A stretch of DNA of 64,000 nucleotides from an uncultured delta proteobacterium. Lineage in GTDB: Bacteria; Myxococcota; Myxococcia; Myxococcales; Myxococcaceae. The position numbers were made by a program, and so were the translations under genes. This document shows positions 1,617 to 46,504 of the stretch, piece by piece. The notes under the pieces were generated by a model. It saw nothing but the letters and a program-made list of their open reading frames with translations, was not told the origin of the DNA and did no database searches. The DNA lies in the NCBI GenBank assembly GCA_963796055.1, contig CAWCKH010000004.1:32001-96000 (forward strand). Direction: 5' to 3'. The number at the start of each line of letters is the position of its first letter. Position 1 is the stretch's first letter.

Positions 1617-2894
1617 GTGACGACCCCGTCCTCCGCCCCGCGCCTCGCCGCGCTCGTCCTGGCGCTCGCCGCCACGCCCGCGGGCGCGCGGGTCGCCGTG
1701 CTCCCGCTCAGCGGACCCAGGAACCACACCCTGGAGCGCCAGCTGGCCTCCTCCATCTGCGCGAAGATGGGCTGCGTCCCCGCCTCCAACGTGATGAGCG
1801 GCAAGAAGGTGGACTGGGACAAGGTCCGGCGGGCTCGCCTCGAGGGCGTGGTGGTCGGCGGCCTGTCCAAGGCCACCCGGCCCCAGGTGCTCGAGGTCAG
1901 CTTCCTCACCCCCGACGGGCAACGGGCCTGGCGTCAGCGCTACACCATCGTCAACGGACGCATCTCCTCCACCAACCTGGTGCAGATCCGCGACGGCATC
2001 CTGGCCACAGCAAGGCCCGCTCCGGCCGCCGCACCCGCCCCCCAGCCTCCGCCGAGGGCCGCTCCCCCCGCCGCCGCGGGAACCGCGGCCGCGCCGCCCG
2101 CGCCTCCGCCCGGGGAGATCGCCCCTCCGCCCGCAGGCACGGACATCTCGGCCGCGGGCACCGCCGCCGACCTCGGCGGACCTCCCAAGCCGGACCTGTT
2201 CGAGCTGGAGATCGCCGCCCAGGTCCTCCACCGCAGCTGGAGCTACTCGGACTACGACCCCGCCGGCGGGCTGCGCACCTACAGCCTCTCGCTCTACACC
2301 CAGCCCCGGGCGCGGCTCGGCGTGTACCCATTGCGCTCTGCCGAGGGATTGTTCGCCGCGGCCGGGGTGGAGCTGTCCGGGGCGGTGGCAATCGGAACGG
2401 TGCTCGCCGGGAATGACCCGGCAGCTCCGAGGTTCCCGCTGAGCCTGTGGTGGATGGACGCGGGCCTGCGGGTCCGCCTTCGTCTGGGGAGCTGGACGCT
2501 CGGACCCGGGGCCGGTTTTCATCTGTCACATCAATCCGTCAACCCGAACTCCCAGGGGGCCCGGCTCGACGGGGTCCCCACCGTGGACGCCAAGGCCCTC
2601 CGGGTCGGGCTCGAATTCGGTGGCCCCATCGCCGGCGCGTTCGGGCTCACCGGAGAATTCAACTACCTCCTGGTGCTCTCCACGGGGGTGGATACCGCCG
2701 AATTCCCCGACCAGAGTGCGGGACCCGCGTTCGAGGGGCGGCTGGGCGCGACCTGGCAGGTCTCTCGCGTGCTCCGGTTGTTCCTGGCCGGCACCTACTT
2801 CCAGGAGAACTACAACCTCAACGCCCCGGGACGCGCTGACAGTGCGCAAGCCGCCGTCTTCGGTGGGGAGCTGGGCTTCCGGCTGGGTCTCTGA
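1617..2894 (+). CDS. Secreted protein: N-terminal domain, Pro/Ala linker, C-terminal outer-membrane beta-barrel-like region (paralog of 5434-6852)
   Basis: Signal peptide (LAALVLALAATPAGA), PAPAAAPAP linker, alternating amphipathic strands ending GGELGFRLGL. Confidence 0.7.
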   Translation: MTTPSSAPRLAALVLALAATPAGARVAVLPLSGPRNHTLERQLASSICAKMGCVPASNVMSGKKVDWDKVRRARLEGVVVGGLSKATRPQVLEVSFLTPDGQRAWRQRYTIVNGRISSTNLVQIRDGILATARPAPAAAPAPQPPPRAAPPAAAGTAAAPPAPPPGEIAPPPAGTDISAAGTAADLGGPPKPDLFELEIAAQVLHRSWSYSDYDPAGGLRTYSLSLYTQPRARLGVYPLRSAEGLFAAAGVELSGAVAIGTVLAGNDPAAPRFPLSLWWMDAGLRVRLRLGSWTLGPGAGFHLSHQSVNPNSQGARLDGVPTVDAKALRVGLEFGGPIAGAFGLTGEFNYLLVLSTGVDTAEFPDQSAGPAFEGRLGATWQVSRVLRLFLAGTYFQENYNLNAPGRADSAQAAVFGGELGFRLGL

Positions 2895-2959
2895 CGGAAG
2901 GCACCCGGTTCCGGCAATGACAGAGGTCCCTCTCCGAACCCTCCGCGCTAGAGTCGCCC

Positions 2960-3511
2960 ATGGTCATGACCAAGATGAACCGTCTTCTTTCGCTCCTCCT
3001 GCTGGTCGCGCTTCCCGCCGCGGCCACCGCGGCCCTCAAGGCGCGCCCGCCCTCCCAGGTCACGTTCGTCGCAGTGGGTCCCGCCGGACTGCGCATCGAG
3101 GGAAAGTCCACCGACCTCCAGGTCACCGACCGGCCCGACGCGCTGGTGGTCACCGTGCCCCTCGCCAGGCTCGAGACCGGCATCTCGCTCCGCGATCAGC
3201 ACATGAAGGAGAAGTACCTCGAGGCCCAGAAGTACCCCAACGCCCAGCTCGCCGTGTCGCGCACCGCGATCAAGTTCCCTCACGACGGCCAGACCACCGA
3301 GGGCACCGTGCCGGCGACGCTCGCCCTGCACGGGAAGTCCAAGACCGTCCCCGTGCACTACCGGGCGACTCGGCAGGGCCGCTCCTACGACGTCAAGGGC
3401 GATCTGAAGGTCGACTTCCGAGAGTTCGGCATCGAGATCCCCAATTACCTCGGCGCCACCGTGAAGCCGCCGGTGGACGTCAACGTCGCCTTCGTCGTGG
3501 ATGAGACGTAG
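2960..3511 (+). CDS. YceI family polyisoprenoid-binding periplasmic protein
   Basis: Signal peptide; L-x-TG-x-x-LRD-x-H, YP, LALHG and FGI motifs of YceI; alternative starts at 2966 and 2975. Confidence 0.88.
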   Translation: MVMTKMNRLLSLLLLVALPAAATAALKARPPSQVTFVAVGPAGLRIEGKSTDLQVTDRPDALVVTVPLARLETGISLRDQHMKEKYLEAQKYPNAQLAVSRTAIKFPHDGQTTEGTVPATLALHGKSKTVPVHYRATRQGRSYDVKGDLKVDFREFGIEIPNYLGATVKPPVDVNVAFVVDET

Positions 3512-4715
3512 CGGCCGCCGCGGTCCGCTCTTGCTGACGGCCGCCGTGCTCCTCATCCCGGGCGCGGCGCGCGCATATCCGTGGATGATTCGCCACGGCT
3601 ACAGCGGCTGCGGCGTCTGCCACATCGACCCCTCCGGTGCCGGACTCCTCACCGACTACGGGCGGGCCCAGTCGGACCTCCTGATGGCCACCCGGTGGAC
3701 GCCGGAGAAGTCCGAGGAGGCGAGCCCCACCGCCGACTTCGGATTCGGTCTCTTCAAGCTCCCCGACTGGCTGTTCCTCGGAATCACCTACCGCGGGGGC
3801 GAGCTGTTCGCCCGTTCCACCACCAGCGACGACTCCGGGTTGCAGCAGAGCACCGCCACCGACCATCGGTGGCTCCACATGCTGGCGGACTTCCGTGCCG
3901 GCCTGCGCATCGGCCGGTTCCGGGCCTCCGGTGCCATTGGCTGGCTCCAGATCCCGGCCTCGGCGATCAGCGTGACCTCCAAGCCCCAGAACAACATCGT
4001 CGCCCGCGAGTTCTGGGCCGGCTGGGAGCTCGGCGAGGAGGCGGGGCTGGTCCGCGGCGGGCGCATCAACCTTCCCTTCGGCCTGAGGAACGTCGAGCAC
4101 ACCGCCTGGGTGCGCTCGGCCACCCGCACCGACATCAACGAGGACCAGCAGTACGGAGTGTCGCTGCTCCTCGCGGGTGAGACGGTGCGCGGGGAGATCA
4201 TGGCCATCGCCGGCAACTACCAGGTGAAGCCCGACGAGTACCGGGAACGCGGCTATTCCGGGTACGTCGAGGCCATGGTGGCGCCCTCGGTGGCCCTGGG
4301 GCTGAGCAGCCTCGTCACCCGCGCCGAGGCCGGGCTGTCCACCAAGATGCCCACGCTGCGGCAGGCGCACGGCGCATTCCTGCGCTGGGGCATCCTCCCG
4401 GAGCTGGGACTCCTCGCCGAGGCCGACGTCCTCTTGCAGCAACGGCTGGGGAGCGGGGTACTCGAGGCCGGCTCGACCACCTGGAGCCAGCTCGATTGGG
4501 AGCCCATCCAGGGGCTCCACCTGATGCCGGCGTTCGAGACCTGGAAGCAGTACGGGGACGTGAGCGGGGTCTCGACCGGCGAGTGGATCACCGTGGACTG
4601 GTTTCCCTGGAGCCACCTCGAGCTGCGGATCGACCTGTTCTTCCGGCAGCAACCGCAGACCGGCGGCTCCACCGACAGCGTCGGGGCCCTCTTCCAGGTG
4701 CACGTGCTGCTGTGA
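3501..4715 (+). CDS. Cyc2-like fused monoheme cytochrome c / outer-membrane porin
   Basis: Signal peptide ending AARA, then YPWMIRHGYSGCGVCH...LLTDYGR, then beta-strand-rich body (VRGGRINLPFG, LLAEAD, ELRIDLF) ending LFQVHVLL. Confidence 0.72.
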   Translation: MRRSGRRGPLLLTAAVLLIPGAARAYPWMIRHGYSGCGVCHIDPSGAGLLTDYGRAQSDLLMATRWTPEKSEEASPTADFGFGLFKLPDWLFLGITYRGGELFARSTTSDDSGLQQSTATDHRWLHMLADFRAGLRIGRFRASGAIGWLQIPASAISVTSKPQNNIVAREFWAGWELGEEAGLVRGGRINLPFGLRNVEHTAWVRSATRTDINEDQQYGVSLLLAGETVRGEIMAIAGNYQVKPDEYRERGYSGYVEAMVAPSVALGLSSLVTRAEAGLSTKMPTLRQAHGAFLRWGILPELGLLAEADVLLQQRLGSGVLEAGSTTWSQLDWEPIQGLHLMPAFETWKQYGDVSGVSTGEWITVDWFPWSHLELRIDLFFRQQPQTGGSTDSVGALFQVHVLL

Positions 4716-4716
4716 G

Positions 4717-5430
4717 ATGCCTCGGCCCTGGATGGGGCGCGGGACCGAGCACGGGCAGGTGAGCGGGCCACCGCCCGCGGCGGCCGGTAGGCTGAAGCCG
4801 CTCCTTCGCCGCGCCCTGTGGGTCCTGGGGACGGGAGCCGCCTTCCTGCTCCTGGCGGTGCTGGGCCTCGGTCTGGCAAGCCTGCTCTCTCCCGGCGAGT
4901 CGTTCCGGCCGGACCCCGAGCCGGTCCCCGTCGCGCGCCCGGCACCGCGTCCCCAGCCGCCCGAGCCGGTCCCCCCGCCCCCGCCGGCTGCGCTGCACGA
5001 GCCACCCCGCCCGCCTCCCGTCGCCGTGGAGCCCGAACCGCCGCGTCCGCTCCTCCCCGCCACGACCCTCACCCTTCCTACCCGCCTCCGCCTCCGGCGG
5101 GAGCTGATTCACGGCCTGGCAGAGCTCAAGGACGAGCTGGGGCGCTGTCCCGCCGACCCGGTCGCGCCGCCACCCGGCCGGCGCGCCGCGCTGGTGCTGG
5201 ACACGGTGACCGAGGCCGAGGCGGTGCGGGTGGTGGGCAGCAGGCTGGAGGCGGACGGCCCGGTCAACGATGGCTTCGTCTCCTGCGCTCGCTCGGTGCT
5301 CGAGGGAAAGCGGCTCCCCACCCCCGGAGCCGCCGCCGGGGCGCGGTTGCGCCTCGTCCTCCCGATCGGTCCGAAGGGGAACTCGCTCTCGATCTCGGCG
5401 GCGTCGCTCTCCGAGGCCGAACGGCCATGA
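4717..5430 (+). CDS. Single-TM, Pro-rich protein with small C-terminal alpha/beta domain (TonB-/AgmX-C-like architecture)
   Basis: TM helix (AAFLLLAVLGLGLASLL), PEP/PPP spacer, C-terminal domain with two Cys (ELGRC...FVSCARSVL). Confidence 0.55.
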   Translation: MPRPWMGRGTEHGQVSGPPPAAAGRLKPLLRRALWVLGTGAAFLLLAVLGLGLASLLSPGESFRPDPEPVPVARPAPRPQPPEPVPPPPPAALHEPPRPPPVAVEPEPPRPLLPATTLTLPTRLRLRRELIHGLAELKDELGRCPADPVAPPPGRRAALVLDTVTEAEAVRVVGSRLEADGPVNDGFVSCARSVLEGKRLPTPGAAAGARLRLVLPIGPKGNSLSISAASLSEAERP

Positions 5431-5433
5431 GCG

Positions 5434-6852
5434 CTACAGCCGCCAGGCCAGCCAGAGACCGCCGCTGAGGTACGTGTCCGTCGCCCCACCGGCCACGTGC
5501 GAGTCGCCGGGCTCGGGGTTGAAGGTGAACCCGTAGCGCTGCACCGCGCCCATCAGCCGGATCTCGAACGAGCGCCCGAGCTCGATCCCGAAGCCGACGT
5601 TGGCGTCCAGGCCCATCGACGACTGCCGCGGGAACCACGCCGCGCTGCCGATCTCCCCGACCGCGAACAGGTGGCGGTACGCCGCGCCGCCCAGGAACGA
5701 CACCGGCCCGAAGAGCGAGAAGCGGAAATCCACCCCGGCGGCCAGGGCCGAGTAGCCCACGTCGGGGATGTCCGGCCTGGGACTAGAGGCGGTCCCGGAG
5801 ATGGTGAACGTCTGGCGCTCGAAGCGCGCCTCGAGCCCCAGGTGCGACTTCTCGCCGATGAGGAAGCGGTAGCCCAGCCCGGCCCCCCAGACCAGCGCCT
5901 TCGTGGGGTAGCTCGTCCCGTCCTGGGCCTGGGACTGCAGCCCGACCGACATCGCGATGTGGCCGGTGAAGTAGACGCGGCCGCCGAAGAGCGGCGCCCA
6001 GGTGAGCTCCACCGCCGGAGCCACCGCGGCGCCCAGCGAGTAGCCCTGGAGCGACTGGTTCAGGTCGTCTTTGTAGGTGAAGTTCCGGGTGAAGAGCGCC
6101 GCGCCGGCGGCGATGTCCAGCGCCGGGCGCTGCGAGTCGCGCGGCGAGGCGGCCTCGGCGCTGACCGTTCCCCCGACGATGCCCGGGTCGCCCGGCGGGG
6201 CGGACGCCGCCGCGGCAGCGGTCGGGAGCGGCGGTGCGGCGCCCGTGGGAAGGGCCGGCTCTCCGGGCGGAGGAGCTGCCCCTGCGGCGAGCGTGGGGCC
6301 CTGGGCTGGCGCTGCAGCGGCAGGGGCCGCAGCCACCGCGGCCACGCCTCCCACCGGGACGGGCTGGAGCGACCCGGGCCGGGGCGCCTTGGTGCCGCCC
6401 AGCGAGCGCTGGAAGCGCGGCTTCAGCTGCTTGGAGAGCACCTGTCCCAGGGCCTTGACGCTGGGCGCCTTCCAGGTCGCGTCGTCCACGATGGAGCCGG
6501 TCGCACCGTCGCGGACCTGGACCACGGCGAGCTGGCTGCTCCCCTTGTCCAGGGTGGTGACCCGGACAACCGCGTCGAGCTTCATCCCCAGCGCCAGCGC
6601 CTGGTACGCCCCGTCGGTGCCGAGCGTCTGACCGTACTTCTGGGCCTCGTCCTGGAGCCGGTTGTCGGGGACGGTCACGCCCTTCAGCGCGCCCAGCGCA
6701 GCCTTTCCCGCCACTGGCGCGCCCGGGCCGGTGGCCAGCACCCCGTAGCGGCGGGCGCTCTTCGACGCCGGGGCCTTGGCCTTCTTCGACGCGGCGAGGG
6801 CGGGGCTCGTCACCAGCGCGGCGAGGAACAGCAGCAGGGCGGAGGTCCTCAT
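5434..6852 (-). CDS. Secreted protein: N-terminal domain, Ala/Pro linker, C-terminal beta-barrel-like region (paralog of 1617-2894)
   Basis: ATG at 6852 overlaps upstream TGA (ATGA); signal MRTSALLLFLAALVTSPALA; C-terminal strand GGLWLAWRL. Confidence 0.72.
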   Translation of the reverse strand: MRTSALLLFLAALVTSPALAASKKAKAPASKSARRYGVLATGPGAPVAGKAALGALKGVTVPDNRLQDEAQKYGQTLGTDGAYQALALGMKLDAVVRVTTLDKGSSQLAVVQVRDGATGSIVDDATWKAPSVKALGQVLSKQLKPRFQRSLGGTKAPRPGSLQPVPVGGVAAVAAAPAAAAPAQGPTLAAGAAPPPGEPALPTGAAPPLPTAAAAASAPPGDPGIVGGTVSAEAASPRDSQRPALDIAAGAALFTRNFTYKDDLNQSLQGYSLGAAVAPAVELTWAPLFGGRVYFTGHIAMSVGLQSQAQDGTSYPTKALVWGAGLGYRFLIGEKSHLGLEARFERQTFTISGTASSPRPDIPDVGYSALAAGVDFRFSLFGPVSFLGGAAYRHLFAVGEIGSAAWFPRQSSMGLDANVGFGIELGRSFEIRLMGAVQRYGFTFNPEPGDSHVAGGATDTYLSGGLWLAWRL

Positions 6853-7286
6853 TCCTCGCCCCCTGCAGCGAGGTTCCGCGTCCACTCGGCGATGCAGGTG
6901 ATCTCCCCGTTGGTGAGCCCGCCCCCGGGCGGCATCGACGAGGTGCAGGTCGGGTTCACCTGGCTGATCAGCTCCTGCAGCGTCCCGCCGTCGAGGTGGT
7001 CCACCCGAACACGGGGCGGACAGGCGTTGGTGCTGACGTCCACCAGCCGCGCACCGGCGTTCGCTGACTCGAGGTCCAGCCCGTTCTGGTGCACCGCGGC
7101 CGAGTGACAGCCGGAGACGCATTTCTTGAGGATGACCTCGGCCTTGGCCGGCTTGCCCAGGCTGGGGCAGACGAATCCGCTGACGTTCGAGCCTCCGTCT
7201 CCGAAGCGGTCCGGGTTGTCCAGGGAGCCCGCGCACCCTGCCAGCATCCACAGGCAGGTGAGGACCAACACACGTCGATGGAGCAC
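6849..7286 (-). CDS. Lipoprotein monoheme c-type cytochrome with CX3CH motif
   Basis: Lipobox LAGC; CVSGCH; GLDL; distal MPP; C-terminal EI..IAEW helix typical of class I/planctomycete-type cytochrome c domains. Confidence 0.7.
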   Translation of the reverse strand: MLHRRVLVLTCLWMLAGCAGSLDNPDRFGDGGSNVSGFVCPSLGKPAKAEVILKKCVSGCHSAAVHQNGLDLESANAGARLVDVSTNACPPRVRVDHLDGGTLQELISQVNPTCTSSMPPGGGLTNGEITCIAEWTRNLAAGGEE

Positions 7287-10979: not shown

Positions 10980-11459
10980 GTGAGATTGCAGCTCGGAGTC
11001 CTGGTGACCGGGCTGCTGCTCTCCCGGCTGTCGGGGGCGGAGCCGGCACGCTTCGCCCTGCAGGGCGGTCAGTGGGGACTCGGGGGAACCGCGGAGCACG
11101 CCCTGGCGGTGCAGCTCGAGCTCCGTCCGGGCGTGCACTGGCGGTGGGTGCGCCCCACCGGGGGCCTCCTGCAGTCCACCGACGGAACCCAGTTCGTCTT
11201 CGCCGGCGTGCTGATCGACATCCCGCTGGCCTGGGGCCTGACGCTCTCGCCGGGGCTCGCGCCGGGGATCCGCACCGTGGACGGCACGCGGAACTTCGGC
11301 TCGCACCTGCTGTTCAAATCGTCGGTCGAGCTCGGGTTCCCGCTCTTCCCCGGGCTGCGTGGCCTGGTGAGCTTCGCTCACATCTCCAACGGGAAGCTGG
11401 CGACGCCCAACCCCGGAATCGAGGTTCTGAACTTCGGCTTCGAGGTCGCGCTGGAGTGA
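10980..11459 (+). CDS. PagL-like lipid A 3-O-deacylase / acyloxyacyl hydrolase family beta-barrel
   Basis: FAHISNG...NPGIE matches the PagL catalytic HxSN..NPG motif; start uncertain (10905-10980). Confidence 0.78.
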   Translation: MRLQLGVLVTGLLLSRLSGAEPARFALQGGQWGLGGTAEHALAVQLELRPGVHWRWVRPTGGLLQSTDGTQFVFAGVLIDIPLAWGLTLSPGLAPGIRTVDGTRNFGSHLLFKSSVELGFPLFPGLRGLVSFAHISNGKLATPNPGIEVLNFGFEVALE

Positions 11460-11605
11460 CCGCCAGGGTCAGTCGAAGTGCAGCTGATCGAACGGCACCG
11501 GCACCGCGTTCCAGCTCGTCTGGCACCCGCCGGGGGCGCCGCTTTCCCGAGCGGTTCCGACCGCGGTGCCCTGTGCGACGTGGTGCGCGGCGCCGCGCCC
11601 ACCAG

Positions 11606-11679
11606 CGACCCCGGCGTGACTCGAACACGCAACCATCGGCTTAGAAGGCCGACGCTCTATCCAGTTGAGCTACGGGGCC
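11606..11679 (-). tRNA. tRNA-Arg(TCT), no encoded CCA
   Basis: Reverse complement GGCCCCG-TAGCTCAACTGGATAGAGC-GTCGGC-CTTCTAA-GCCGA...GTTCGAGTC...CGGGGTC-G folds as a cloverleaf. Confidence 0.95.
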
Positions 11680-21743: not shown

Positions 21744-21819
<76 letters not shown>

Positions 21820-36643: not shown

Positions 36644-36682
36644 GGGCAGCGGTCGCGGGAGTCACGGCGACAGGCCGCGGTT

Positions 36683-37168
36683 TCAGGAACCGCGCGCTGC
36701 GGCCTCGATGCGCGGGAGATCGATCTTCTTCATGTCCATGACCGCGGTCATCACCCGGTCCGCCTTCTTTTGATCCGGGCCGCTCACCGCACGGATCAGC
36801 GCCGACGGGACGACCTGCCAGGAGACCCCCCAGCGGTCCTTGAGCCAGCCGCACATGCCCTCCTGGCCACCGTTGGAGGTGAGCGCCTTCCAGAGCCGGT
36901 CGACCTCCTGCTGGGTCTCGCACTCAATCGCCAGGGAGATGGCCTCGCTGAACTTGAACTGCGGACCGCCGTTGAGCGCCACGAATTCCTGGTCGCCGAG
37001 GCGGAAGCTCACCGTCATCACCGAGCCCTTCGGCCCGGGGCCCACCTCCCCGTAGCGGGTCACCTCGAGGATCTTCGAGTTGGAAAAGAGCGAGACGTAG
37101 AACTTCGCCGCCTCCTCCGCCTGCCCGTCGAACCACAGCATCGGCCGGATCTTCTGCGTCTCCGCCAT
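36683..37168 (-). CDS. VOC family protein (3-demethylubiquinone-9 3-methyltransferase-like/PhnB)
   Basis: LWFDGQAEEAAKFY, LNGGP, CGWLKDRWGVSWQ, MKKID. Confidence 0.92.
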   Translation of the reverse strand: MAETQKIRPMLWFDGQAEEAAKFYVSLFSNSKILEVTRYGEVGPGPKGSVMTVSFRLGDQEFVALNGGPQFKFSEAISLAIECETQQEVDRLWKALTSNGGQEGMCGWLKDRWGVSWQVVPSALIRAVSGPDQKKADRVMTAVMDMKKIDLPRIEAAARGS

Positions 37169-45000: not shown

Positions 45001-46055
45001 TCGGTGCGGCTGAAGTGGACGACGATCGGGGTGTTGAGCCAGAGCTTGCATACCCCGCCGATCCGGCCGAGGCAGCCCGCCTGCGGCTGGCCGGTGTAGA
45101 AGGTGACCAGGTAGAAGATGATCTCCCGGTTGCCTGGCAGCGTGCCGAGGTTGAGCGTCCGGTCGTAGAGCGACACGCCCGGATCGGGATTGCTGCCCGC
45201 CGGTAGGAGCCGGCCGTTCCCGTCGTAGGCGCTCACGTCGTAGTCCGGCACGCCGTCCGCCTTGCTGGAGATGTCCTTCACCGGGACCAGCGCCTTGGTG
45301 GTGGTGTCGGTGTCGTCGTCGGCGTTGAGGAAGACCAGGTGCCCGAGGCCCAGGCCACCGTTCGCCGGGTCCGCGGGCTCGAGGAGGTTGGGGACGCGGG
45401 CGTAGAGGCCGTTGTCGGTGTACTCGAGGTTCGGGGTGGTGGGCGTGCTGCCATTGGCCTTCCCCACCTGCCAGCCCGAGACCGAGCCCATCCCGCCGTC
45501 GGCGAGGAAGGCGGTCTTGCTGGTGGTCCCGTACGTCGTGCCGCAGGCGTCGGTGGCGATCTCCGGCTCCACCAGCTTCACCCCGTTCCAGGTGAAGGTG
45601 GGCGGGGTCGCGCCACACTTGCGGAACTTCCCGATGTAGCGGTTCTGGGAGAGGTTGTAGATGTCCTCGTGGAGGTCGGGGATGCCGTCCGCATCGGAGT
45701 CGAGCAGGTTCCCGCTCGCGTCCATGTACCCCCGCTTCACCAGGTCGTCGGCGTACAGCCAGCCCAGCGCCCAGCCGGCGCCGCCGGCGTTGTAGACGTA
45801 GCTGATGCTCACGTTCTGGTCGAACGGGAGCTGGATCTTCTGCGGGTTCAGCACGTCGAGGTTGGTGTTCAGCCGGAGCACCGCCGGATTGCCCACCACC
45901 TGGACGGTCTTCAGGCTCTGGAAGCCTCCGTCGGCGAAGTCCGGCTGGCGATTTTGTGCGAGGTCGTCCTTGCAGAGCGCGGCCAGGTTGCCGCCCTGCG
46001 CCACCAGTGCCCAGCAACAGACGAGCACCGCCAGTGCCGTTGCCAGCCGCTTCAT
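42057..46055 (-). CDS. pilY1: PilY1 adhesin with DUF4114-type Ca-binding motif and C-terminal beta-propeller
   Basis: Signal peptide; GFEDLSGGGDRDFNDVVF; GMLHAF..G.ERFAFLP; ALDIT; IYLIDLATG; 1332 aa. Confidence 0.88.
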   Translation of the reverse strand: MKRLATALAVLVCCWALVAQGGNLAALCKDDLAQNRQPDFADGGFQSLKTVQVVGNPAVLRLNTNLDVLNPQKIQLPFDQNVSISYVYNAGGAGWALGWLYADDLVKRGYMDASGNLLDSDADGIPDLHEDIYNLSQNRYIGKFRKCGATPPTFTWNGVKLVEPEIATDACGTTYGTTSKTAFLADGGMGSVSGWQVGKANGSTPTTPNLEYTDNGLYARVPNLLEPADPANGGLGLGHLVFLNADDDTDTTTKALVPVKDISSKADGVPDYDVSAYDGNGRLLPAGSNPDPGVSLYDRTLNLGTLPGNREIIFYLVTFYTGQPQAGCLGRIGGVCKLWLNTPIVVHFSRTDLNMDENLNMTNPAAQVDIGCGYPNTCNVDGGTYTGWLDQATLTRLASPDGGYNLTMPHEVVSVPRSTTNRMPHVIVGAPSTDPFRWILGFEDLSGGGDRDFNDVVFQINKSNGGTATSGLVSSDISPTDVADLTITNIRFRKDDDTAFQASGPANACNGPPKASIDYYVAVDCNLCASGICTTNPDPSWTRVPLPSGNPSEVTFNVLDLGFTGSQLCWQARLSSPNQYCQPTIKSISVGYQAVRAGSYSRSSLSTVGNAFVYGTYETPGQSWTGPWPSSPPAPSTRNYDAKRDLAIRGHLYLKSIYDPEQPTVTHGVQRWDSGGKMVTDLTAGSPSTRRLLTVDSTGKIAALSTVNSAEDLLLPATQLCRVNGGKYVFDLNQDGVCTSTDRDFLKDWLYGWEDNQNPAPSNVRRAWPMGGVNLSTPAVVGPPTFPSWYYNTTGDEQTSFQTRFMSGILNGSPLSARNTYTYVNTSSGMLHAFAAGHYSPSTSDPCLGQMGQTLYRGFFQPTGACVTPPGINARNYGNGAERFAFLPRRLLGRYVNSYVGPTITGAPAASLDASPAVGDVDLGGLGSTVLPWTISNKVGLGAKTMLVSAAGRGQSSVFALDITQPDLDTYPIFQWEFDMSSVSGAFATARLGNPSILLPDTNGTRHAPVIARVDFGTSATADCGGGQGSCRKWIAAVASDYVPASGYAGAIYLIDLATGLPVVVNGKQVGVVPIEQGEGIGGEPTYGDATPGDGTSDVLYVPSTSGRVYRLNLSKRDESLTLGSRVPKCLIASAPLAVGGSDGPYQEIHSGLVSRPGPITDGKNTVMFFFGTADSPDDPYDATASRYYVFGYTDPDPLGTCPPAPVAPTWSNALDPGQRVWGGVSLDANFVYVTTAVGNAADACNLSNDTSGKYYSFGQGDGSAQSGSGKDLGGHSLNSPVIYDGHVLSVSVTGQATAYGDAAWNNRTNFTPATAPRVILWDVSTQSQLPK

Positions 46056-46504
46056 GGCCGCTTCCCTCCTCGCCTCGCCCGGGCGGTGGGGACGCCGGCC
46101 TTCGCGGCCCGCGCCTGATCCTGGGCCAGCGACTGGCGGAGGCGCTCCTTGCGCGGAGGCGCCTCGGGCACCACCCGGGACATCAGGAAGGCCATGACGT
46201 CGTCCAGCTGCGCCGCCGGCAGCTGCCGCGTGTCACAGCTCGTGTCGCGCCGTACCGCGACCGGGTTCTGGATCCACGCCCGAGCCGGATCGTAGCCCTT
46301 GGACAGGAGCGCCTCGGTCAAATCCGGGCCGGCGCCGGGGCGGGCGTTTCGCCGGTCGGCGTGTGGCTCCCGCTCCCCGGCGGGGACCTGGCTCGCCGCG
46401 TGGCACCGGGCGCAGGCGGAGGCGAACGCACTGGCGCCCACGTCGGGGTCGGCCGCCAGGGCGGGCAAGGAGAGCAGCAGGGCGATGGAGACAAGGCGAG
46501 GCAC
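46052..46504 (-). CDS. tfcP: TfcP-like non-canonical cytochrome c (probable His/Cys ligation)
   Basis: Signal peptide; C31ARC34H35; GPDL; W..NP....DTSC90 in place of the distal Met; located between pilX and pilY1. Confidence 0.8.
   Translation of the reverse strand: MPRLVSIALLLSLPALAADPDVGASAFASACARCHAASQVPAGEREPHADRRNARPGAGPDLTEALLSKGYDPARAWIQNPVAVRRDTSCDTRQLPAAQLDDVMAFLMSRVVPEAPPRKERLRQSLAQDQARAAKAGVPTARARRGGKRP

Follow-up and report, generated by a model that had tools for sequence, protein, structure and literature searches.

A YceI–heme-porin gene pair and a putative lipoprotein cytochrome–barrel gene pair at one myxobacterial locus, with a possible role in electron transfer across the outer membrane

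What does a gene block do in which four envelope-protein genes converge on two others, and of whose six products only one, a YceI-family protein, is annotated above cut-off by Pfam or NCBIfam? The block occupies positions 1,617 to 7,286 of a 64,000-nucleotide stretch of DNA (the window; GCA_963796055.1, CAWCKH010000004.1, positions 32,001 to 96,000), which belongs to contig C4. Its host genome, 5.5 Mb long and 98.5% complete, has Myxococcaceae metagenome-assembled genomes (MAGs) as closest named relatives. On the plus strand the block encodes barrel protein A, the YceI protein, a predicted monoheme cytochrome-porin, and protein D, and on the minus strand lipoprotein E and barrel protein B (Table 1). 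An initial annotation, made from the letters alone, took the six genes as perhaps one unit of electron transfer or redox sensing. As one conserved unit they do not stand, the full block being seen in one Myxococcaceae genus only; it is a mosaic of two independently conserved gene pairs, yceI–porin and E–B. The envelope location of the products, the strongly conserved heme-c motifs, and the Cyc2-like architecture of the porin are upheld, and the proposed trans-envelope redox role is likely. That both pairs together form a quinone-linked, low-capacity electron relay across the outer membrane is suggested tentatively, as a reading with nearly an even chance of being right.

The pairing of YceI with the porin recurs well beyond the window. 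The YceI protein belongs to its family (PF04264, 60.5 bits vs. a cut-off of 23.7, E 3e-16) and matches PDB 3q34 at E 1e-4. Neighborhoods were counted by six-frame hidden Markov model (HMM) searches in the best 79 of 295 confirmed porin stretches, 11 of them orthologous to the window locus (at least 72% identity) and 68 not. YceI adjoins the porin in all eight assessable orthologous loci; among the 68 others it usually stands upstream, adjacent in 39 and within 1.5 kb in 41, and in a distant sister subfamily (~25% profile identity) it comes before the porin in 7/7 loci. A second partner, a monoheme protein of ~155 amino acids (aa) with a Cys–transmembrane (TM)–Arg tail, is encoded directly downstream of the porin in 53 of 66 non-orthologous loci, and 63 of the 66 assessable ones have either YceI no more than 1.5 kb upstream or this small protein directly downstream. 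MYXO-CTERM tags send proteins to the cell surface (PMC11980579). The small partner is likely surface-tagged, to judge from its visible Cys, TM, and Arg-rich tail and from sub-threshold matches to TIGR03901 (MYXO-CTERM) in four of seven cases (best 19.7 bits vs. 20). Over 24–30 columns the heme segment of these small cytochromes (L031–L099) aligns with the heme plugs of the porin family and Cyc2, at 91% and 94% by hhalign, and they match NF041762 (diheme_GEGP) weakly; they may be free-standing Cyc2-type heme domains.

The window locus departs from this pattern. The small monoheme protein usual behind the porin is lacking, and D sits in its place. All 11 orthologous loci carry an A/B barrel; D is present in 9/11 and E in 6/11, as far as the contigs reach, whereas the small cytochrome was found in 0/10. 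Of the 68 others, 15 have a di- or triheme cytochrome, 6 an A/B barrel, one (L044) an E-like domain, and none D. A quick tree places the window clade as sister to loci that carry an A-type barrel, multiheme cytochromes, YceI, porin, and small cytochrome, with the barrel upstream of the porin (L030, L032, L036, L038, and L039). Because those sister loci carry multiheme and small cytochromes, the tree suggests that the window locus lost its own. Triheme and small monoheme partners also occur as a pair without a porin (host genome, G000:C5:112691-114014), and the triheme protein stands at the edge of a multiheme island as well (C1:303921-304955).

The porin profile matches 42 of 201 sampled Myxococcota genomes, a count that includes weak matches to other subfamilies and one unpublished genome. 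The host genome holds three yceI–porin pairs, one of them with a small cytochrome. In the second (G000:C4:541000-543900, L101) a Lipoprotein_15 repeat protein gene stands before the pair and a small Cys-TM-Arg-tailed monoheme protein gene after it; the third (G000:C4:1737000-1744000, L102) is preceded by a ferritin/rubrerythrin-like gene. In relatives of the third pair (L061, L062, L064, L072, L075, L081, and L089) the downstream genes are, by inspection, those for a small barrel-like and a secreted protein, a Ser/Thr kinase gene, and an ECF-like gene.

The porin itself belongs to a sizeable family. Among 7999 scored candidates 619 are homologues, and of the 1801 clusters (50% identity) that its profile reaches, 374 score E 1e-30 or better. 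The protein has no match among Pfam or NCBIfam models, PDB sequence searches with it and its profile returned chance matches only, and in the ESM Atlas it falls among unnamed Myxococcota clusters. The CxxCH motif is invariant in 89/89 aligned sequences and present in 95/96 full-length 50%-cluster representatives, among those listed. The AlphaFold2 model has 16 strands (mean pLDDT 85.8), and its closest fold is OprP (Z 25.6, rmsd 2.7, 301 residues aligned), tied with PorB (Z 24.9); no Cyc2 structure was among the matches of the fold searches. Met127, His200, and His401 are conserved in 94/96, 94/96, and 87/96 family sequences, respectively, and no equivalent conserved His or Met was seen in 30 canonical-motif Cyc2 proteins. 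From this conservation each is a candidate distal heme ligand or metal site. Variant porins (L150–L152; P0262, P0265, P0283, P0284, and P0296) include a two-CxxCH subfamily, and also members in which an acidic insert, up to ~190 aa long, separates the heme plug from the barrel.

The likeness to Cyc2, which the initial annotation had raised as a fusion able to conduct electrons across the outer membrane, extends to architecture and remote homology and stops short of membership. The published criteria for Cyc2 are a single N-terminal CXXCH, a length of at least 365 aa, an OprO/OprP-like 16-strand porin (these being the templates reported for Cyc2), and the motifs AXPXFAR[Q/K][T/Y] and PXL (PMC8406198). 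The window porin has a signal peptide recognized by eye, one N-terminal CxxCH, 404 aa, and a predicted 16-strand OprO/P-like barrel, and a P-x3-R-x5-CxxCH register is kept in 67/89 and 59/96 family sequences. The first motif occurs in 0/89 and 0/96 of the family, as against 20/30 motif-bearing Cyc2 proteins (as PxFAR[QK][TY]), and PXL downstream of CXXCH in 0/89 and 0/96, as against 24/30; in the register of the first motif the window porin reads AYPWMIRHG. The family further differs from Cyc2 in a DPSG insert after the motif and in the three conserved residues named above. The Cyc2 set was gathered with the host genome’s own motif-bearing Cyc2 (C3:639490-640824) as bait, which yielded 30 Myxococcota proteins with Cyc2-type motifs, and the comparison was thus made with these, not with characterized Cyc2 sequences. 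Direct alignment of the families by hhalign gave 92.7% over 61 N-terminal columns, signal peptide included, and 66.9% for the mature proteins. A bridging family aligns at 99.6% with the porin family over 341 columns and at 98.3% with the 30 Cyc2 proteins over 337, and by barrel only at 98.8% and 95.2%. In a quick tree with long branches the porin family falls outside nine motif-bearing Myxococcota Cyc2 proteins. By these comparisons the porin is Cyc2-like in build and a remote relative, and is not a member by the published definition. The genome’s own Cyc2 lies in an operon (G000:C3:633454-642258, L100) with two cytochromes of two CxxCH motifs each and, by inspection, heme-copper oxidase subunits.

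The second conserved pair joins lipoprotein E to barrel B. Cys, Cys, His, Met, and Pro are invariant in all 44 E homologues despite a variable heme-motif spacing (CX2CH in 12, CX3CH in 19, CX4CH in 13), so that E is likely a His/Met class I (PSCyt1-like) monoheme cytochrome c. Pfam PSCyt1 and Cytochrom_C models do not match E, and single-domain homologues reach at most 21.2 bits vs. 22. Class I cytochromes beside distant porin subfamilies (six loci, L141–L146) are homologues of E (hhalign, 90.8% and 97.5%). Homology to the N-terminal heme domain of the triheme partner was considered and rejected (hhalign, 2.3%). The association with the barrel was assessed at 63 distinct barrel loci outside the genus, composed of 27 of the top 30 matches (1.5-kb flanks) and 40 regions hand-picked to span families, less four duplicates. 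An E-type lipoprotein adjoins the B-type barrel in 27 of them, always on the same strand, upstream in 23 and downstream in 4; eight have a DUF1592/1588 cytochrome beside the barrel, and four a multiheme cytochrome. A heme-c gene lies within 2.5 kb in 37/63 barrel loci, compared with 395/4713 genes (8.4%) in the host genome, figures that include kindred, non-independent genomes and come from profiles for which some of these loci served as input. In genus g35 (L187–L192) a DUF1592/1588 cytochrome gene follows the B-type barrel in 6/6 loci, replacing E, with a DUF1552-like gene behind it in the four loci displayed. Complex prediction of B, E, and heme scored 0.00 in two runs and counts neither way.

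The gene-neighborhood check that the initial annotation had called for cut both ways. Each pair is widespread without the other, and E-type cytochromes and A/B-type barrels recur beside porins in L044, L199, and L141–L146. The two modules meet in three lineages: the window genus; genome G214, where L199 gathers YceI, porin, small cytochrome, DUF1592, DUF1552, E, and B in one cluster; and Archangium minus, where L044 clusters an E-like domain, YceI, porin, small cytochrome, and a convergent B-type barrel.

If the two modules do act together, electron transfer might proceed as follows. The Ccm system would attach heme c to the N-terminal plug of the porin, which is feasible because CcmE and cytochrome c assembly genes are present in the host genome. 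The heme plug would be placed where the barrel opens to the periplasm, as in the proposal for Cyc2, and the heme would take Met127, His200, or His401 as its sixth ligand. The ligands in YceI structures are typically octaprenyl compounds (isoprenoids) or ubiquinone-8 (PMC9113575), and the window YceI may ferry quinone and quinol between the inner-membrane pool and the porin heme, replacing the periplasmic cytochrome chain of Cyc2. From there the electron would pass to a second monoheme carrier, which is swappable: the small MYXO-CTERM-like protein encoded behind the porin in most relatives, and at the window locus E, likely held or displayed by B, as a probable stand-in. The most likely course of flow is outward, with quinol giving electrons to, e.g., a metal chelate or humic quinone outside the cell, because no oxidase gene flanks the locus and a separate canonical Cyc2–diheme–oxidase operon lies on C3. 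A broader reading, of a mix-and-match myxobacterial electron kit in which soluble YceI brings quinol to a Cyc2-sister heme porin and 10-strand barrels of a new class display or wire up CX2-4CH monoheme lipoproteins, appears rather unlikely.

Several results count against the joint relay. The heme-plug segment of the porin is weakly modeled (pLDDT <50 at residues 19–36), the barrel aligned alone with the 30 Cyc2 proteins gives a non-significant 1.0%, and the bridging family consists of four sequences only. YceI is not beside 27/68 non-orthologous porins and so is not obligatory; 26/63 barrel loci have no heme neighbor; and E–B occurs mostly without the porin, as in genus g13, source of eight E–B loci, where the barrel was found in 16/16 genomes and the porin in 0/16 (in g35 the porin profile matches 0/17). 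In several genomes with both modules these are on different contigs, the two window operons are convergent and hence need not be co-regulated, and the direction of flow is read from gene context only. The two operons may then be unrelated neighbors, brought together by rearrangement, with YceI and the porin as a redox module and E–B and D doing another envelope job, e.g., adhesion or lipoprotein display. Convergent orientation, confinement of the full block to one genus, the spread of E–B without the porin, and the resemblance of the B fold to the adhesin OpcA all agree with this; set against them are the A-type barrel that precedes the porin in the sister clade, the renewed meeting of the modules in L199 and L044, and the E-class cytochromes flanking distant porin subfamilies. 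Such a chance association is possible, if doubtful, and is compatible with a redox role for the YceI–porin pair.

Other explanations concern what the porin does. As a Cyc2-like Fe(II) or Mn(II) oxidase it would pass electrons from dissolved metal to E or, via YceI, to the quinone pool, for which its Cyc2 architecture and remote homology, the conserved Asp, Glu, and His in its barrel, and the midpoint potential of −130 mV given for one Cyc2 (PMC13692758) can be cited; yet either Cyc2 motif is found in 0/96, no oxidase gene flanks the window locus, a motif-bearing Cyc2 is encoded separately in the genome, accompanied by diheme cytochromes and a heme-copper oxidase, and the authors of the Cyc2 criteria caution against carrying function over to distant homologues (PMC8406198), all of which leaves metal oxidation improbable. 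A role in envelope protection, in which YceI-bound quinol quenches lipid peroxyl radicals or other oxidants and the heme porin re-reduces or re-oxidizes it, would parallel BcnA, a YceI-family protein that with the cytochrome b561 LcoA guards against lipid peroxidation (PMC9113575). A weakly matched rubrerythrin/ferritin-like gene (E 3e-4) upstream of yceI in one paralogous locus would fit such a role; outer-membrane heme without an obvious source of reductant would not, and the commonest partner, the likely surface-tagged cytochrome (53/66), better fits external electron exchange, so that protection too is given only a small chance. The porin might also be a heme-gated uptake channel that admits a lipophilic or anionic molecule for YceI, or a redox sensor, its heme plug gating the pore or signaling the redox state to D or to ECF sigma systems nearby. 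The OprP/PorB-type barrel, the TonB/TolA-like layout of D, and the ECF-like and kinase-like genes near several relatives (the latter two by inspection) invite this view of a channel or sensor, but D is genus-restricted with a weak TonB-C-like match (19.6%), and the regulators are not conserved across the porin family as the extra cytochromes are; between them, channel and sensor are judged unlikely. The relay across the outer membrane is kept as the working reading of the locus.

Table 1. Genes and conserved heme-related residues of the six-gene locus, in window coordinates
Feature	Position	Strand	Description
Barrel protein A	1617..2894	+	425 aa; paralogue of B; behind the signal peptide a small periplasmic alpha/beta domain, joined by a Pro-rich linker to a C-terminal barrel
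YceI-family protein	2960..3511	+	183 aa; PF04264; likely periplasmic isoprenoid/quinone carrier
Monoheme cytochrome-porin (P0003)	3501..4715	+	404 aa; predicted 16-strand OprP/PorB-like barrel, N-terminal heme-c plug
Porin CxxCH heme-c motif (C37, C40, H41)	3609..3623	+	CGVCH, residues 37-41
Porin Met127	3879-3881	+	conserved residue
Porin His200	4098..4100	+	with Met127 and His401, candidate distal heme ligand or metal site
Porin His401	4701-4703	+	conserved residue
Protein D	4717..5430	+	237 aa; N-terminal TM helix, Pro-rich linker, two-Cys C-terminal domain
Barrel protein B	5434..6852	-	472 aa; predicted TolB-N/PelC-like domain (33-153), Pro/Ala linker, 10-strand barrel (244-472)
Lipoprotein E	6849..7286	-	145 aa; likely class I (PSCyt1-like) monoheme cytochrome c, CX3CH, Met118
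E CX3CH heme motif (C56, C60, H61)	7104..7121	-	CVSGCH, residues 56-61; invariant in two alignments

The structure of the locus bears out most of what the initial annotation had described. All six open reading frames (ORFs) stand, a codon model trained on the genome giving the same frames, and two products carry heme-c motifs, CGVCH in the porin and CVSGCH in E. The porin ATG at 3501 precedes the end of the yceI stop codon at 3511, an overlap of 11 nt; the porin stop codon runs to 4715, and the first base of D is 4717; the convergent genes D, ending at 5430, and B, with its stop at 5434–5436, leave a 3-nt gap; and the E stop and B start share ATGA at 6849–6852, pointing to translational coupling. 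The plus-strand junctions described as tight are so at yceI/porin and porin/D, and not at A/yceI, where the gap is 65 nt. The operon limits may reach further outward, since a GH15 glucoamylase gene lies 43 nt upstream of A and an M28 peptidase gene 70 nt upstream of E. Scans of the locus found no promoters and two terminator-like sites, vs. 1.9 expected. Of the claim that all six products are exported or membrane-anchored, the envelope location holds; D, by inspection of its N-terminal TM helix, is anchored and not exported. Signal peptides and the E lipobox (LAGC, Cys18) were assigned by eye. The paralogy of A and B was also upheld: direct BLASTP is weak (E 6e-4, 24% over 279 aa), and both match a third paralogue on contig C5 (E 8e-11 and 8e-10, respectively).

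The barrels form a family found in 90/201 Myxococcota genomes, including 16/17 of g35. In the AlphaFold2 model of B (pLDDT 85.5) a disordered Pro/Ala linker connects a TolB-N/PelC-like domain to a 10-strand barrel, and A, which no Pfam or NCBIfam family matches above cut-off, is inferred to share this predicted architecture. The B barrel resembles pOmpT (PDB 7xw0; Z 21.3, rmsd 2.9, 210 residues aligned by VIA-align) and OpcA (PDB 2vdf; Z 19.6), and its N-terminal domain TolB (Z 9.8) and PelC (Z 9.4), while the barrel profile finds only weak LpoB/TolB matches among PDB sequences (E 0.03–0.1). Omptin proteases have conserved catalytic His and Asp residues. In the B family no His or Met is conserved, no column having His in 30% or more of 77 rows, and an omptin-protease identity for A and B was rejected for want of a conserved His. 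A gliding-machinery reading, with A and B as GltA/B/C and D as GltG/J-like, was set aside as no more than a possibility, as it had low-complexity GltJ matches only. None of the 77 A/B members has a Glt match in NCBIfam, where the presence of GltA/B/H models was unchecked, and GltC, described as a tetratricopeptide repeat (TPR) protein (PMC11761067), is unlike the B model. The third A/B-type barrel (L104:1495-4140 in G000:C5, and L202) lies beside a UbiA-family gene, likely for heme O synthase.

Protein D is genus-restricted, being found in 4/4 genus genomes with one marginal match (E 6e-4) among 81 family genomes. Its layout is TonB/TolA-like by inspection, it aligns weakly with AgmX/PglI C-terminal domains (hhalign, 19.6%, E 0.0012), and it is outside the 11 NF033768 matches of the host genome; it is likely an accessory or passenger gene. 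Elsewhere in the window a monoheme cytochrome c gene (46052-46504, minus strand; PF00034 above cut-off) lies within a pilin-like gene cluster, by inspection, and immediately upstream of a gene for a 1332-aa secreted protein with DUF4114. The window also encodes a PagL lipid A deacylase (10986-11459, plus strand) and tRNA-Arg (11605-11679), tRNA-Pro (21745-21819), and tRNA-Leu (36651-36738).

The literature searched, with subscription journals and supplements outside its coverage, yielded no description of the YceI–heme-porin module or the E–B pair, and none linking Cyc2 with YceI. Cyc2 serves as a marker for iron oxidation, and the porin sister family shares its architecture, yet 0/96 carry the recognition motifs. 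If YceI does carry quinol to the porin, YceI proteins would gain a concrete role, and extracellular electron transfer a quinone-carrier route without a periplasmic cytochrome chain. E–B is an unannotated cytochrome–barrel couple across Myxococcota, whose variable heme-motif spacing escapes CxxCH scans; should the broader kit exist, it would be the smallest barrel–cytochrome pair so far. Archangium minus, Cystobacter fuscus, Chondromyces apiculatus, and Labilithrix luteola are cultured hosts of the porin module, which makes it testable.

Among known systems, Cyc2 stands closest to the porin in build. Examples are Cyc2 of A. ferrooxidans, Cyc2PV-1, and Cyt572 (PMC8406198, PMC13741234, PMC13692758); Cyc2 is partnered by Cyc1, rusticyanin, or an oxidase, in contrast to the YceI and small monoheme proteins found with the porin family. 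BcnA and LcoA likewise tightly couple a YceI-family gene to a heme-protein gene, and a quinone-mediated periplasmic redox cycle has been proposed for them (PMC9113575). Their heme protein is an inner-membrane b-type cytochrome, whereas the window partner is a predicted outer-membrane c-type heme porin; YceI genes are usually linked to cytochrome b561 (PMC9113575), and no b561 gene adjoins the window yceI, whose neighbors are A and the porin (b561 was not searched for in other loci). The predicted 10-strand fold of the B C-terminal domain recalls omptins and OpcA, from which B differs by its 10% identity, extra N-terminal domain, and Pro-rich linker. The MtrAB, MtoAB, and PioAB complexes and PCC3/PCC4, as E–B does, couple a cytochrome gene to an outer-membrane barrel gene (PMC8406198, PMC5566968), an analogy that suggests E–B may be a conduit or display pair. 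Those systems employ 26-strand barrels and multiheme cytochromes, decaheme in MtrAB and MtoAB, while the window barrels are predicted to have 16 and 10 strands, E has one heme motif, and B bears a periplasmic TolB-N-like domain.

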